A stretch of DNA of 40,314 bases from a virus (taxonomy: Duplodnaviria; Heunggongvirae; Uroviricota; Caudoviricetes). A program made the translations under genes and the position numbers. The number at the start of each line of letters is the position of its first letter. Position 1 is the first letter of the stretch. Of this stretch, positions 1,312-40,314 are shown in pieces. The stretch lies in IMG/VR virus record IMGVR_UViG_2563366990_000017, positions 1 through 40,314 of that record; one strand, 5' to 3'. Under the pieces are notes generated by a model. The model did no database searches. It was not told the DNA's origin and saw only the letters and a list, made by a program, of their open reading frames with translations.

Positions 1312-1503
1312 ATGTTAAAGCTATTTGCAAAGTACACCTCTATTGGTGTGCTGAACACCCTTTTACACTGGGTGTTTTTTGGTGTTTGTATCCATGCAGC
1401 GCATACAAATCAAGCTATGGCGAACTTCGCAGGTTTCGTTGTGGCTATGAGTTTTAGCTTCTTCGCGAATGCAAAATTCACATTCAAAGCATCGACTTAT
1501 TGA
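1312..1503 (+). pseudogene. gtrA: Truncated gtrA (bactoprenol-linked glucose flippase), N-terminal ~62 codons only
   Basis: MLKLFAKYTSIGVLNTLLHWVFFGVCIHAAHTNQAMANFAGFVVAMSFSFFANAKFTFKAST matches the N-terminal half of phage GtrA (~120 aa full length), then a stop and unrelated AT-rich DNA. No gtrB or gtrC follows. Confidence 0.7.
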
Positions 1504-1599
1504 TCATTTGATAGCATATCCTCTACAGCATTATACGACATAAAATATAATGGAACTGTATTTGTAATTGATTTTAGTAAGAAATGCGAGTGAGAAAAT

Positions 1600-1630
1600 A
1601 AACCTAGTGATAATAATTAACACTAGGTTT
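1600..1630 (-). terminator. Rho-independent terminator downstream of tailspike (possibly bidirectional)
   Basis: Perfect 10-bp inverted repeat aaacctagtg / cactaggttt with an 11-nt loop, directly after the tailspike stop. U-tract on the minus transcript (attttctc), T-rich on plus as well. Confidence 0.6.
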
Positions 1631-1640
1631 ATTATATTTA

Positions 1641-3569
1641 TCAATTCGATAGAGTAACTGAAAGATGAGAGCCAGCTATAACAGTTAATGTATTCCCAGC
1701 CCTGTTATCTATGGTAAAAGCTCCATTAATGAAATCAGTAGAAACTGAGGCAACTACATTTAAAGTAACACTTCCATTAACATCAGGAAGAGTGAATTGC
1801 ATAATATTGCTGCCATTTGGAAGTATAGTACCACTTGGCGCAGTAATTCCTATTACTTGCGTCGTGCTTCCAGCACCACCAAGGTAAGAAATGTTTATAT
1901 TTATTGAAATTCTACTACCTTTAGCGATTGTCATCTGCAACTGATTTATATTTGAACCTATTGCTACTATCTTGTTAGAAGATACAAAATCATTTTTTAT
2001 TGAAAAAACAGGTGTAGCAACACCGATGACTGGTACGTTTGAAAGCTTAACAGGCCTTGGAAGTGATAAAGCCTCCCCTGCTCCTGAGTATGAAAAGTCT
2101 GATATTGAACAATTACCACCATCGGTGCCAGAAAACAATATTCCAGAGGTGTGTGAAGAGTCTGTGCTTATATCAGAAAAATGAATATTTGAAGAACCAT
2201 TACCAACAGTTGCTACAACGTGTCCTGTATTAGTTGTAAACTTCATACCAATAACATCAACTCCAGATATATTATTGCCAATGGCAAAACACACCCCACC
2301 TCCCCCCTTGCAGTAGGTTATCTCACCGCTAAATTTTGCATGACACAATCTCTCGATAGTGGCGTTGTTAAACTTAACCCTACCTCCTATGACTGTATTA
2401 ACATTAATTTCTCTACAATGAGTTGTATTTCCCTCTCCAAAATACATAGCAAATCCAGTATTTGAGTTATTTCCTATGAATCCACCATTGACAGTTAACA
2501 CATATATATCAGAGACATCAAATGTTCTTTCGAAATTATCTATTGTGCAATCGGTAAAATGCCAACCCTCATTATAATAAGGGCCACCGGTTGCAGTACT
2601 ATAAATGCCAATTCCAACAGTATCAGTAGCCGATGTCGCCCCAAATACAATGCTCTTATTACAAGCCAACTCTACTGTTTTCCCTGATGAAACAATCCCA
2701 TTTACGGTATAAAACATGCAGGAATCAATAAATATTTGACGAACTGCTTTTTTTAACAAAAGCGCATATGTAATCATTGAAGATGATACATGAACACCGT
2801 AAAGTCTTATCTGTTTAATATAGTCTTCATTGCTAGGTGTGTCGCTATCACCTTCAGCCTCTAAGAATGCACTTGCCGTTCCTGTAACAATGCAGCTGCC
2901 GCCCCAAATTGTTAATCCGATATTTTTACCATTATACTTAAATATAGGAGAACTACCTGTAGAAGCTGTTAACTTTGATCCGCCAAGATAAATAACCCTG
3001 CCATCAGGTATATTTATTGTTCTTTCAATAAGGTAGTCGGTAGGTTCCATATATACAATTTCACAATCATCAATTGCCATCTGAATAGCCTCGGTTATGT
3101 CTGAGGACTGTGAAATATACATTTCTGGTGTTACATACTTTATTGAATATTTAATTGCATTCTCAATTGTACCATATTTATCTATACCTATTAATGATGC
3201 TCCTGATGTGCTTGAAAGTCTTTGCTCCAGCTGATCAGGGTCATACTTCAGCACATTAGGAAAATAGAACTGCTGCGCACCATATGCATCATAAACAGCC
3301 ATAGAATGGCCTTGCACGGTAACGAATTTGGCAATCTGTCCGTTATATACTGGATACCCAGCGGCATTGATGACGATTGGCTGTGCAACAGGAACGTGAG
3401 AACCATCTTCGTTCTCTACATAAACCTGAATTTGGTTTTCAGGATTTACCGGGTCAGTGTCAATTTTACCGATATAAATTTTTCCATTGGCTACGGCTTT
3501 AAAAGAACGCGCCATAGTGAAGAGTTGCGAAGGCATGCTCACTACAACATTGGCTGTAATGTCTGTCAT
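1641..3569 (-). CDS. Tailspike protein (P22 gp9-like head-binding domain plus divergent beta-helix receptor domain)
   Basis: 642 aa with ATG at 3569 and GGAG RBS. N-terminal ~110 aa ([11 protein letters not shown]...[22 protein letters not shown]...[12 protein letters not shown]...NVLKYDPDQ) closely resembles the P22 tailspike head-binding domain. The rest is AT-rich, N/S/T/G/I-rich repeats typical of a right-handed beta-helix. Confidence 0.85.
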
Positions 3570-3669: not shown

Positions 3670-4005
3670 TCAGTAGTTATGTACTGAAGGAGGTAATTCT
3701 TTATTCTTAAGTCTCATCCATGCGGAAAGATTCGTTGGTCCGTCTGGCTCATTAATATCAACATCTCGTGTATGGTTGATTAAAACATCTCTCGCCATTC
3801 CGATAACATACGAGAACTCATGACCGTAGTCGTAGCATCTGCCGGAATAGTTCGATTGAATTTGTTTTAATGCCGGATACAGTTCACGGAATAATGCCTG
3901 TGAACGGTTGGCATAATCCCATAGCCATACAAGGCTGTTTGCTTCTTTTGCAGAAAGCTCGTTTGCTTTCTTCTCTTGTTTGCCGATAAACTCGCCTTCA
4001 AGCAC
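3670..4005 (-). CDS. Hypothetical protein (111 aa)
   Basis: ORF begins 15 nt after the ant stop but with a GTG start (4005-4003) and a weak RBS. No recognised domain. Confidence 0.4.
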
Positions 4006-4020
4006 TACCCTGTGGATGTA

Positions 4021-4548
4021 CTATACGGCCAGCGGGATTTGTTCAATTGAAAGTTCATCAATGCTGTCAATACCAAAACGCTGATGAACCATATTGTATG
4101 CATCGTCATAGCGAAGTCCTTTCTTTCCTACCAGCATGTTTACTGCATCGCGTAGCGGCGTTCTTTCCTCAACAGTGGTTTTCTTGCCTTTCACATACTC
4201 GCCATGTTTGCGAATTGAAGGTAGAACTTCTGCTGTTACCCACTTGCGGAATTTGTGCGGGACCGAACCTTTATTGACAGCATCGCGGCAGCGCAGAACC
4301 AATGTATACATACCTGATTCGCTAACAATGCTTAGATTCTGCTCACCACCAAGGGTGTAACTTAAAGTTACTCCCTTTTCATCGTCATCAAGTGCAGTAA
4401 TCGCCTTGCGTGAGTTAGTCAGGGTTAAAGCATCACAAACATCTTTTGCTACAAACCACGGCTCACCGCATTTGTTGATGACGCGGATTTCACTGTCGCC
4501 GAATTTGAAGATGGTGAAATCGTTTTGTGCCTTTGCTATACTTTTCAT
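4021..4548 (-). CDS. ant: Antirepressor, Bro-N domain protein
   Basis: Start moved to the internal ATG at 4548 ([24 protein letters not shown]..., a typical Bro-N start) with an AGGAAA RBS. Sits directly downstream of arc as in the P22 immI operon. Confidence 0.75.
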
Positions 4549-4616
4549 GTCAATATTTCCTAATCCGATTTGTTGATACCGAAGCCCTGACTGTTCCCGC
4601 AGTTGGGGCTTCAACT

Positions 4617-4868: not shown

Positions 4869-5123
4869 ATGGCTAGAGATGATCCGCACTTTAACTTCCG
4901 CATGCCTTTGGAAGTAAGAGAAAAATTAAAATACAGAGCAGAGTCAAATGGTAGATCAATGAACTCAGAATTGTTGCAAATCGTCCAAGATGCTCTATCG
5001 AGACCATCTCCTGTAAAAGGTTATCGCAATGAAGCTGAACGATTAGCCGAGATGCAGGCTGAACAGTTCAAGTCTGTGGTATTTGAGACACTTAAAAACA
5101 TGTATGGCAAGGATGCAAAATGA
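4869..5123 (+). CDS. mnt: Mnt repressor
   Basis: MARDDPHFNFRMPLEVREKLKYRAESNGRSMNSELLQIVQDAL... closely resembles P22 Mnt. Divergent from arc across the operator region. Confidence 0.9.
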   Translation: MARDDPHFNFRMPLEVREKLKYRAESNGRSMNSELLQIVQDALSRPSPVKGYRNEAERLAEMQAEQFKSVVFETLKNMYGKDAK

Positions 5124-5701
5124 TCGATTACAACCCAGCAAAAAAAGAAATCATCGCAGCTAAAAAGTGCCTAGAGCAGATGAAATCATCTACAAACCAT
5201 GATGATTTTGAAATGCACTGGCGAGAATGTCTTGGGCATATAGAAAAGTCTTTCAGTAAGTTGCTCTGTGCAACAAAGCCGGTTAGTGGAAAATTTAGCA
5301 GCCACTTCAACCAAAAGTTCATGCTTAGAAAAACAGACAAAACACTTGCTTACCTTCACCAAGCAAGAAATGCTGATCATCATTCCACTATGGAAATCTC
5401 AAAACTTGAACCTCCTTATACTACTCTTGGGGCATTTCCGGGAGCAAGAAGCCATTATATTAAAGAGTTAATCATTGATTCAACAGGGAAAATAGCAAAA
5501 TACGAAGGCGACCCTATGATAGTTGAGTTTCATCCAGCAACAACTATGCCTATAACCGTAAGAAACCAAGGCAAAGATTATCCACCTCCAACAGAACATC
5601 TTGGCGAAAAGCTTGTTGATATACATCCATCTGTTCTTGCCTATCTCGGTATACAATTTTATGAAAAATGGATAGATGAGTCGCGTGCAATGTTTAGATA
5701 G
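5120..5701 (+). CDS. Hypothetical protein (193 aa), AT-rich accessory gene
   Basis: ATG at 5120 overlaps the mnt stop (ATGA), so likely co-transcribed with mnt. Markedly AT-rich compared with flanking phage genes. No recognisable motif. Confidence 0.6.
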   Translation: MIDYNPAKKEIIAAKKCLEQMKSSTNHDDFEMHWRECLGHIEKSFSKLLCATKPVSGKFSSHFNQKFMLRKTDKTLAYLHQARNADHHSTMEISKLEPPYTTLGAFPGARSHYIKELIIDSTGKIAKYEGDPMIVEFHPATTMPITVRNQGKDYPPPTEHLGEKLVDIHPSVLAYLGIQFYEKWIDESRAMFR

Positions 5702-39066: not shown

Positions 39067-40314
39067 CTATATTGCTGAAGGTACAGGCGTTTCCATAACT
39101 ATTTGCTCGCGTTTTTTACTCAGGAAGAAAATGCCAAATAGCAACATCAGGCAGACAATACCCGAAATTGCGAAGAAAACTGTCTGGTAGCCTGCGTGGT
39201 CAAAGAGTATCCCAGTCGGCGTTGAAAGCAGCACAATCCCAAGCGAACTGGCAATTTGAAAACCAATCAGAAAGATCGTCGACGACAGGCGCTTATCAAA
39301 GTTTGCCACGCTGTATTTGAAGACGGATATGACACAAAGTGGAACCTCAATGGCATGTAACAGCTTCACTAATGAAATAATCCAGGGGTTAACGAACAGC
39401 GCGCAGGAAAGGATACGCAACGCCATAATCACAACACCGATAAGTAATGCATTTTTTGGCCCTACCCGATTCACAAAGAAAGGAATAATCGCCATGCACA
39501 GCGCTTCGAGTACCACCTGGAATGAGTTGAGATAACCATACAGGCGCGTTCCTACATCGTGTGATTCGAATAAACCTGCATAAAAGACAGGAAAGAGTTG
39601 TTGATCAAAAATGTTATAGAAAGACCACGTCCCCACAATAAATATGACAAAAACCCAGAAGTTTCGATCCTTGAAAACTGCGATAAAATCCTCTTTTTTT
39701 ACCCCTCCCGCATCCGCCGCTATGCACTGGTGATCCTTATCTTTAAAACGCATGTTGATCATCATAAATACAGCGCCAAATAGCGAGACCAACCAGAAGT
39801 TGATATGGGGACTGATACTAAAAAATATACCAGCAAAGAACGCGCCAATAGCATAGCCAAAAGATCCCCAGGCGCGCGCTGTTCCATATTCGAAATGAAA
39901 ATTTCGCGCCATTTTTTCGGTGAAGCTGTCAAGCAAACCGCATCCCGCCAGATACCCCAGGCCAAAAAAGAGCGCCCCCAGAATTAGACCTACAGAAAAA
40001 TTGCTTTGCAGTAACGGTTCATAAACGTAAATCATAAACGGTCCGGTCAAGACCAGAATGAAACTCATACACCAGATGAGCGGTTTCTTCAGACCGAGTT
40101 TATCCTGAACGATGCCGTAGAACATCATAAATAGAATGCTGGTAAACTGGTTGACCGAATAAAGTGTACCTAATTCCGTCCCTGTTAATCCTAGATGTCC
40201 TTTCAGCCAAATAGCGTATAACGACCACCACAGCGACCAGGAAATAAAAAAGAGAAATGAGTAACTGGATGCAAAACGATAGTACGCATTTCTGAATGGA
40301 ATATTCAGTGCCAT
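39067..40314 (-). CDS. cscB: Sucrose permease, LacY-family MFS oligosaccharide:H+ symporter (bacterial flank)
   Basis: 415 aa with 12 predicted TM helices and LacY-like motifs. From memory resembles CscB, whose locus lies next to argW in csc-positive E. coli. Start codon at the window edge (40312-40314). Confidence 0.75.
   Translation of the reverse strand: MALNIPFRNAYYRFASSYSFLFFISWSLWWSLYAIWLKGHLGLTGTELGTLYSVNQFTSILFMMFYGIVQDKLGLKKPLIWCMSFILVLTGPFMIYVYEPLLQSNFSVGLILGALFFGLGYLAGCGLLDSFTEKMARNFHFEYGTARAWGSFGYAIGAFFAGIFFSISPHINFWLVSLFGAVFMMINMRFKDKDHQCIAADAGGVKKEDFIAVFKDRNFWVFVIFIVGTWSFYNIFDQQLFPVFYAGLFESHDVGTRLYGYLNSFQVVLEALCMAIIPFFVNRVGPKNALLIGVVIMALRILSCALFVNPWIISLVKLLHAIEVPLCVISVFKYSVANFDKRLSSTIFLIGFQIASSLGIVLLSTPTGILFDHAGYQTVFFAISGIVCLMLLFGIFFLSKKREQIVMETPVPSAI

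Follow-up and report, generated by a model that had tools for sequence, protein, structure and literature searches.

In P22-like phages, the exchange of receptor-binding modules just past the head-binding domain of the tailspike is textbook knowledge, and these modules are the main determinants of the O-serogroup range of a phage. Here, we describe the tailspike gene of a P22-like E. coli prophage contained in IMG/VR virus record IMGVR_UViG_2563366990_000017 (positions 1 to 40,314; this whole stretch of 40,314 nucleotides is called the window below). This tailspike joins a conserved head-binding domain to a receptor-binding module that was acquired horizontally. We consider, with a probability of about 80%, that it is a functional chimeric spike of the prophage, the module being proposed to form a trimer that cleaves an O-antigen.

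For E. coli, a survey of module exchange has included Lederberg-, Uetake-, Kaguna- and other viruses, and receptor-binding proteins (RBPs) are assigned to the same subtype when at least 30% of their amino acids are identical within the receptor-binding domain (PMC10408124). The subtype closest to the window tailspike is the one formed by Escherichia phage vB_EcoP_PAS61 (PAS61; Uetakevirus, WMX19002.1) and Kagunavirus 26 (UAW06957.1), described in PMC11522302. PAS61, whose host is O146:H21, makes plaques with a halo and, among the strains of the panel tested, infected just the smooth O146 one; a glycosidase site made up of two clusters of acidic residues was predicted by its authors (PMC11522302). 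Over residues 114/117-642, the window module is 49.1% identical to that of PAS61 and 51.4% identical to that of Kagunavirus 26. Compared with the threshold of at least 30%, these values place it in a known RBP subtype and not among the orphans. In both relatives, however, the N-terminal adaptor differs from the P22 head-binding domain. Since about half of the residues differ from PAS61, the serogroup recognized by the window module may not be O146. No near-identical characterized tailspike was found, the best phage records reaching 51% and 49% over the module, and PAS61 is the nearest one that is partly characterized.

Other described systems resemble the window tailspike mainly by their head-binding domain. 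This domain is 93% identical in Sf6 gp14 (a Shigella phage endorhamnosidase; PDB 2vbk, 4urr, 7sg7), a phage that shares with the window both the prophage type and the position of the tailspike gene. It is 76% identical in P22 gp9 (the Salmonella phage endorhamnosidase), which has the same overall design. The Lederbergvirus CUS-3, with 96.5% identity over the domain, likewise carries a swapped-in module, but this is a K1 capsule endosialidase whose sequence is unrelated to that of the window module.

Mosaic structure of the tailspike gene

The tailspike open reading frame (ORF) is intact over its 642 codons at 1641..3569 on the minus strand (Table 1), and the exact protein, from many draft E. 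coli genomes, is deposited at NCBI (ELE54359.1 and others) as a 'phage head-binding domain-containing protein'. Over residues 1-113, it matches the Pfam family PF09008 (Head_binding) at profile positions 1-113 of 113 (E 2.8e-67), and the N-terminus aligns to the solved N-domains of P22 gp9, Sf6 gp14 and HK620-type tailspikes among PDB sequences. The initial annotation, made from the sequence alone, had pointed out that the first ~110 residues resemble the P22 head-binding domain, and this is borne out by the Pfam match and by the 76% identity to P22. Nevertheless, the same residues are 91-97% identical to those of Sf6, CUS-3, Kapi1, the E. coli YA-1 prophage and two further fusion proteins (P0028 and P0031). 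The label 'P22-type' is thus correct, yet the domain is in fact the E. coli/Shigella Lederbergvirus version. Elsewhere, the PF09008 domain precedes differing bodies in at least 29 PHROG families.

Past residue 113, the scan of the full protein against Pfam gave no match to another family. The phmmer alignments to P22 tailspike chains among PDB sequences stop at about residue 139, leaving the body of P22 gp9 (residues ~125-666) unmatched, and the Pfam family of the P22 tailspike body was not matched either. The earlier observation of no resemblance to the P22 endorhamnosidase body therefore holds. A switch in composition accompanies this loss of similarity. The GC content falls from 0.434 over codons 1-113 to 0.367 over codons 114-642 (0.465 for the whole window), the GC content at third codon positions drops from 0.40 to 0.25, and the share of N, S, T, G and I climbs from 29% to 50% of residues past the head-binding domain. 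The sharp shift starts at about residue 123, past a short linker. Hence, the abrupt change to low-GC, N/S/T/G/I-rich sequence reported in the initial annotation is real, but the repeats that it described there are not: Tandem Repeats Finder gave, over the tailspike sequence, a single 23-nt match of 1.9 copies. The apparent repetitiveness is a matter of compositional bias and of the structural periodicity of beta-helix coils.

The limits of the imported DNA were located by blastn. Homology to the backbone covers positions 1-1497 of the window (int and codons 1-62 of gtrA), with 94% identity to YA-1, and restarts at 3213 (Kapi1) or 3250 (YA-1). Both flanks (int with half of gtrA, and the head-binding domain) share 89-98% identity with ordinary P22-like prophages of E. 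coli. The segment carrying the module has its closest relatives in two other loci, L005 (tailspike P0004; 90.96% DNA identity over 1648 nt, with homology to 3145) and L006 (tailspike P0003; 89.57% over 1697 nt, with homology to 3194). The modules are 89-90% identical at the protein level, and the 90-91% DNA identity continues through a hairpin and the 3' end of gtrC. From about G123, the residues of the window tailspike track the P0003 sequence GSGLIGIERFGTVENAI. By contrast, the virion adaptors of these two tailspikes are different, L005 having one of the PF18668 type and L006 having a Uetakevirus-like anchor, and both loci have intact gtrC-gtrB(-gtrA) operons. The L006 locus belongs to a Uetakevirus-like prophage in which holin, GH19 endolysin and spanin genes follow downstream. 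The acquired segment (1498..3194) has a GC content of 0.355, versus 0.465 for the whole window. Since 1498-3145/3194 is 90-91% identical to modules found behind quite different adaptors, whereas the flanks belong to the backbone, the receptor-binding module was horizontally acquired. The transfer proposed from composition and protein similarity is thus seen directly at the DNA level.

Compared with these 90% relatives, the tailspike shows a dN/dS (ratio of nonsynonymous to synonymous substitution rates) of 0.13-0.15, and it therefore evolves under purifying selection. Most substitutions fall in the C-terminal domain, and few occur near residues 300-400.

The gtr scar and a probable terminator hairpin

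In relatives such as YA-1, Kapi1 and Sf6, the gene order is argW-intS-gtrA-gtrB-gtrC, then the convergent tailspike gene, then ant-arc-mnt. On the P22 map, the tailspike gene lies beside gtr and int; gtrC of P22 was present in the phage records compared. In L005 and L006, a convergent gtrC (474 aa, PF14264) and then gtrB adjoin the tailspike gene. The homology imported into the window crosses the tailspike stop codon and the conserved hairpin, and ends within the last codons of a gtrC of the L005/L006 type. The translation of 1498..1593 matches SFENISSTALYDIKYNGIVFVIDFSKKCE, followed by the stop, at the 3' end of the L005/L006 GtrC. As a result, the interval 1312-1593 (plus strand), between int and the tailspike gene, holds an in-frame fusion of codons 1-62 of gtrA to the last ~31 codons of gtrC, and gtrB is absent. 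Of a complete gtrABC operon (gtrA ~120, gtrB ~305 and gtrC ~470-490 aa), the scar is all that remains in the window. Because the imported homology reaches the last codons of the convergent gtrC, this interval is a gtrA'::'gtrC scar, which marks a deleted O-antigen glucosylation operon.

The joint, GCATCGACT followed by TATTG, is identical in nine of the nine other P22-type carrier loci examined, and a further IMG/VR locus (L018) also has the gtrA(1-62)/gtrC-tail arrangement, as judged by protein match. The backbones of the carrier loci vary in their ant, arc, mnt, sieA, Rap1a and gp16 content. Since the joint is identical across such differing backbones, it arose once, before the tailspike spread through several mosaics. 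The 93-aa fusion ORF is open (TGC) in six of the nine other carrier loci, whereas the window lineage has a TGA stop at 1501-1503, just past the joint, resulting from a TGT/TGC-to-TGA change. An ORF that stays open in six of ten carrier loci, the window included, could hint at a residual role.

Two histories may account for the scar: (i) the cassette entered through a crossover deeper inside gtr and the deletion came later or (ii) the joint is itself the illegitimate end of the acquisition event. The gtrA stub is 94% identical to gtrA of YA-1, whereas gtrA and gtrB of L005/L006 are just 76% identical to those of YA-1; the data on the scar fit both histories.

The GtrC proteins encoded by L005 (2407-3831) and L006 (5849-7273) are 27% identical to GtrC of YA-1. 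Among 50,697 phage records, no GtrC is more than 28% identical to the L005-type GtrC, which is also absent from 5,426 complete E. coli genomes. This is a distinct type of GtrC, likely specific for the same O-antigen as the module. Between the gtrC remnant and the tailspike gene, the hairpin (1597-1633) has a free energy of -16.2 kcal/mol (z -6.3 versus shuffled sequences) and is kept in L005 and L006. It is probably a bidirectional intrinsic terminator serving both convergent genes.

Module family, putative active site and receptor

The module belongs to a sizeable family found behind various adaptors. A word-indexed search of 5.8 billion proteins returned 36 clusters of this family and an exhaustive profile search of 1.84 billion representatives gave 94 clusters at E<=1e-30, most of them spanning the whole module. 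The adaptors include PF09008, PF18668, PF03906 (T7 fibre N-terminus), PF03160 or unrecognized ones, and the sources are E. coli, E. albertii, E. marmotae, Citrobacter and metagenomes. Pfam, NCBIfam and PHROGs contain no family that matches the module body, the single PHROG match (phrog_17312, E 6.4e-06) covering the first 56 linker residues only. When the family profile was compared with PDB sequences, adaptor domains of other members were matched but never the module body. The family therefore has neither a model in Pfam, PHROG or NCBIfam nor a solved structure. Among its distant members, P0028 (E. albertii/E. coli) and P0031 (E. coli ETEC1738, JX2), which have modules 43% and 36% identical to that of the window, are also fused to a P22 head-binding domain. 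Since these modules are distant and the linkers of the two fusions differ, this suggests that Lederbergviruses acquired the module family separately more than once.

Among bacterial genomes, megablast gave no match for the module DNA in the 5,426 complete E. coli genomes, sensitive blastn found nothing more than a 108-nt patch in two of them, and no relative was confirmed in GTDB species-representative genomes. The identical protein is present in 125 contigs and 246 indexed blocks of an assembly collection, with the same context in 24 of the 24 contigs read (the carrier assemblies being readable only within 3-6 kb of the tailspike gene). Furthermore, variants of the tailspike with 98% identity sit in several different P22-like backbone mosaics. 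Assemblies with the tailspike include GCA_044552295.1, GCA_033688435.1, GCA_049245975.1, GCA_001748915.1 and GCA_001607605.1, and further draft genomes encoding the protein or its 98% variants underlie the records ELE54359.1, WP_069904001.1 and KYU34134.1; a literature search by carrier assembly accessions retrieved no paper naming them.

An AlphaFold2 (AF2) model of the module, built from 34 sequences, has a mean predicted local distance difference test (pLDDT) of 91.1 and a predicted template modelling score of 0.84, the pLDDT being ~50 over the first 30 residues and >90 afterwards. The modelled chain starts with short helices, continues with beta-strand coils over ~340 residues and closes with a C-terminal beta-sandwich. 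According to this model, the module body is a right-handed parallel beta-helix of the pectate-lyase-like fold; the beta-helix assumed in the initial annotation is thus supported by a monomer model and by fold matches. The best Foldseek match is the Sf6 tailspike (E 4e-9, template modelling (TM) score 0.49), which has a similar architecture of beta-helix and C-terminal beta-sandwich, with just 14% identity in the structural alignment. Remote sequence homology to the Sf6 body was considered and rejected: the hhalign probability of 96% was an artefact of the head-binding columns. Once these were removed, the profile of the module alone gave a probability of 2.1% against Sf6 residues 110-623, and the catalytic residues could not be aligned. 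Since homology of the bodies vanishes without the adaptor columns, the catalytic residues of Sf6 are not transferable to the window module. The C-terminal beta-sandwich gave partial Foldseek matches (~140 residues, TM ~0.45) to the trimeric TNF-like lectins 2wq4 (BC2L-C N-domain) and 9ib7 (PLTL), and may be a second carbohydrate-binding or trimerization domain.

Clues to the active site come from PAS61. All seven of its proposed active-site carboxylates (E404, E437, D447, E491, E521, D541 and D573) are identical in the window tailspike, where they correspond to E300, E334, D344, E387, E416, D438 and D470. Four of the seven are invariant in the 34-sequence alignment, within strongly conserved motifs, and the seven stand on successive strands of the AF2 secondary structure. 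They would thereby line a groove along one face of the helix. A deacetylase of the SGNH or esterase type, one of the activities known for such modules according to the initial annotation, was rejected since the fold is a beta-helix and the Pfam scan revealed no esterase domain. It can also be asked whether the module is a lyase acting by beta-elimination, or a binder that cleaves nothing, instead of a glycoside hydrolase. Fold comparison does not separate hydrolase from lyase chemistry, hydrolases scoring equally well among the fold matches (GH87, GH110, GH28, CBA120 TSP3, Det7), and the authors of PAS61 read the carboxylate clusters as glycosidase sites (PMC11522302). We thus regard a lyase or a simple binder as rather unlikely, and favor a hydrolase.

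The genes that follow the module in temperate relatives bear on the nature of the receptor. An O-antigen-modifying gene lies directly downstream in each case: gtrCBA in the clade with 90% identity, an O-acetylase in the temperate member of the PAS61 clade and an Oac-like gene in L023; at this position, the window has the gtr scar instead. In P22, Sf6 and epsilon15, the O-antigen-modifying genes of a phage mask its own receptor. The presence of such genes directly downstream of the module in temperate relatives therefore supports the O-antigen as the class of receptor. The module could instead be a depolymerase of capsule (K-antigen) or colanic acid, the phage recognizing the exopolysaccharide layer. 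Many of the top fold matches are indeed capsule depolymerases (of Klebsiella K1, K2 and K21, Acinetobacter tailspikes and the Phi92 colanidase), and CUS-3, from the same phage group, has its K1 endosialidase on the same head-binding domain. Moreover, some RBP subtypes span several O-serogroups, possibly through capsule targeting (PMC10408124). However, because the beta-helix is common to both enzyme classes, the fold matches do not discriminate between them, and both the gtrCBA or O-acetylase genes immediately downstream and the infection by PAS61 of solely the smooth O146 strain of its panel speak against a capsule. We judge a capsule or colanic-acid target to be improbable, and the O-antigen is favored. 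From sequence comparison, the module is thus most likely an O-antigen depolymerase.

Under this reading of the tailspike as an O-antigen-cleaving spike, residues 1-113 plug the spike into the tail hub, and the module (neck, beta-helix and beta-sandwich) would form a trimer binding one particular E. coli O-antigen. This O-antigen would be cleaved endoglycosidically by the row of carboxylates E300, E334 and D344, possibly with E387, E416, D438 and D470, on successive coils. Such cleavage would allow the virion to work its way down through the lipopolysaccharide layer to the outer membrane. The module would have entered the lineage along with a serotype-specific gtrC, and an illegitimate joint between codon 62 of gtrA and the last ~31 codons of gtrC would later have removed the glucosylation operon.

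State of the prophage and significance

The window holds a P22-like (Lederbergvirus) prophage, inserted at argW. Kapi1, phiv205-1 and CUS-3 match 55-59% of the first 25 kb at 95-96% identity. The left end is intS, which adjoins tRNA-Arg (argW) and yfdC in E. coli chromosomes, and the tailspike gene occupies the position typical of Lederbergvirus, at the end of the late region, between ant/arc/mnt and gtr/int. At the right end lies a gene for a 415-aa sugar symporter of the LacY family (39067-40314, minus strand; PF01306, E 9e-194). This gene presumably belongs to the chromosome beyond the prophage. A symporter of this family and size would be consistent with the sucrose permease CscB. The presence of this host-type symporter therefore indicates that the window spans the entire prophage, from int to host DNA.

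Two genes near the tailspike deserve mention. The ant gene (3670-4614, minus strand), with Bro-N and P22_AR_C domains, has an in-frame stop at 4021-4023 that splits it into ORFs of 197 aa and 111 aa. In L007-L009, which carry the identical tailspike, no gene is called at the ant position, and L014 and L016 have an intact Ant of 300 aa. Between the arc/mnt pair and sieA, an ORF of 193 aa (5120-5701, plus strand) has no Pfam match and is kept at the same position in YA-1, L007-L009, L014 and L016. This ORF could represent a moron or a superinfection-exclusion gene.

Table 1. Features of the tailspike gene and of the adjacent gtr scar in the window
Feature	Coordinates	Strand	Details
Complete tailspike coding sequence	1641..3569	-	642 aa; ATG start; stop codon 1641-1643; ORF list
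Head-binding (virion attachment) domain, residues 1-113	3231..3569	-	Pfam PF09008; PDB N-domain matches
Variable linker and recombination joint, residues 114-125	3195..3230	-	End of backbone versus module homology
Predicted helical neck or cap ahead of the beta-helix, residues ~126-170	3060..3194	-	AF2 helices, module residues 22-55
Predicted right-handed parallel beta-helix body, residues ~171-513	2031..3059	-	Holds E300, E334, D344, E387, E416, D438, D470
Predicted C-terminal beta-sandwich domain, residues ~519-642	1644..2015	-	AF2 strands, module residues 411-527
Whole horizontally acquired segment (receptor-binding domain, terminator, gtrC tail)	1498..3194		blastn to L005 and L006
gtrC remnant (last codons), part of the imported module	1498..1593	+	90-91% DNA identity to L005/L006
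gtrA stub, codons 1-62 of 120, backbone type	1312..1497	+	94% DNA identity to YA-1; in frame with gtrC remnant
Hairpin between the convergent tailspike gene and gtrC remnant	1597..1633		13-bp stem and U-run

The in-frame stop in ant, the reduction of the gtr operon to a scar with a nonsense codon and the fact that none of the 5,426 complete E. coli genomes carries the module could also mean that the tailspike is a relic in a decaying prophage, its mosaic structure telling of its history and not of a working spike. Nonetheless, its 642-codon ORF is intact, its dN/dS versus relatives is low, the identical protein recurs in the 246 indexed blocks, its 98% variants occur in several P22-like mosaics and the window keeps a full run of ORFs of virion, lysis and replication size. 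These data make a mere relic very unlikely, and we retain a functional spike.

Several points nevertheless weigh against a functional O-antigen-cleaving spike. Nonsense codons interrupt both ant and the gtr scar, and this partial decay of the prophage makes present-day production of virions less certain. The structural model consists of a monomer and its secondary structure, so that the trimer and the placement of the groove go beyond it. For every member of the module family, what is known of function comes from sequence, predicted fold and host range, and the assignment of PAS61 to O146 is derived from host range and one prophage and not from biochemistry. Finally, the attempt to deduce the serogroup from lysogens, through the 5,426 complete genomes, GtrC matches and the literature on carrier assemblies, yielded none.

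Since module swapping is already textbook knowledge and has been surveyed (PMC10408124), our finding extends the catalogue of tailspikes and does not change the understanding of these phages. Three aspects are modestly new: the evidence at the DNA level of a module travelling with its gtrC, a gtr scar of single origin, and a module family devoid of model or structure. A broader proposal, which we put forward tentatively and consider doubtful, is that the module and a serotype-specific O-antigen modification gene (gtrC, or the acetylase in the PAS61 clade) move between unrelated backbones as a matched 'recognize-and-then-mask' cassette. In that proposal, the module would represent a family of O-antigen depolymerases that has so far escaped classification and has an invariant catalytic motif of its own, and the cassette would have been fixed here by a single illegitimate gtrA::gtrC joint before spreading through many P22-like mosaics. 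In any case, the gtr scar provides a clean case, open to dating, of a receptor-binding domain that moved together with the cognate gene for receptor modification. Tailspike modules are used as serotyping reagents, as parts for the retargeting of tailocins and phages and as anti-virulence enzymes. Hence, the assignment of a serogroup and a chemistry to this module would add one more usable specificity.
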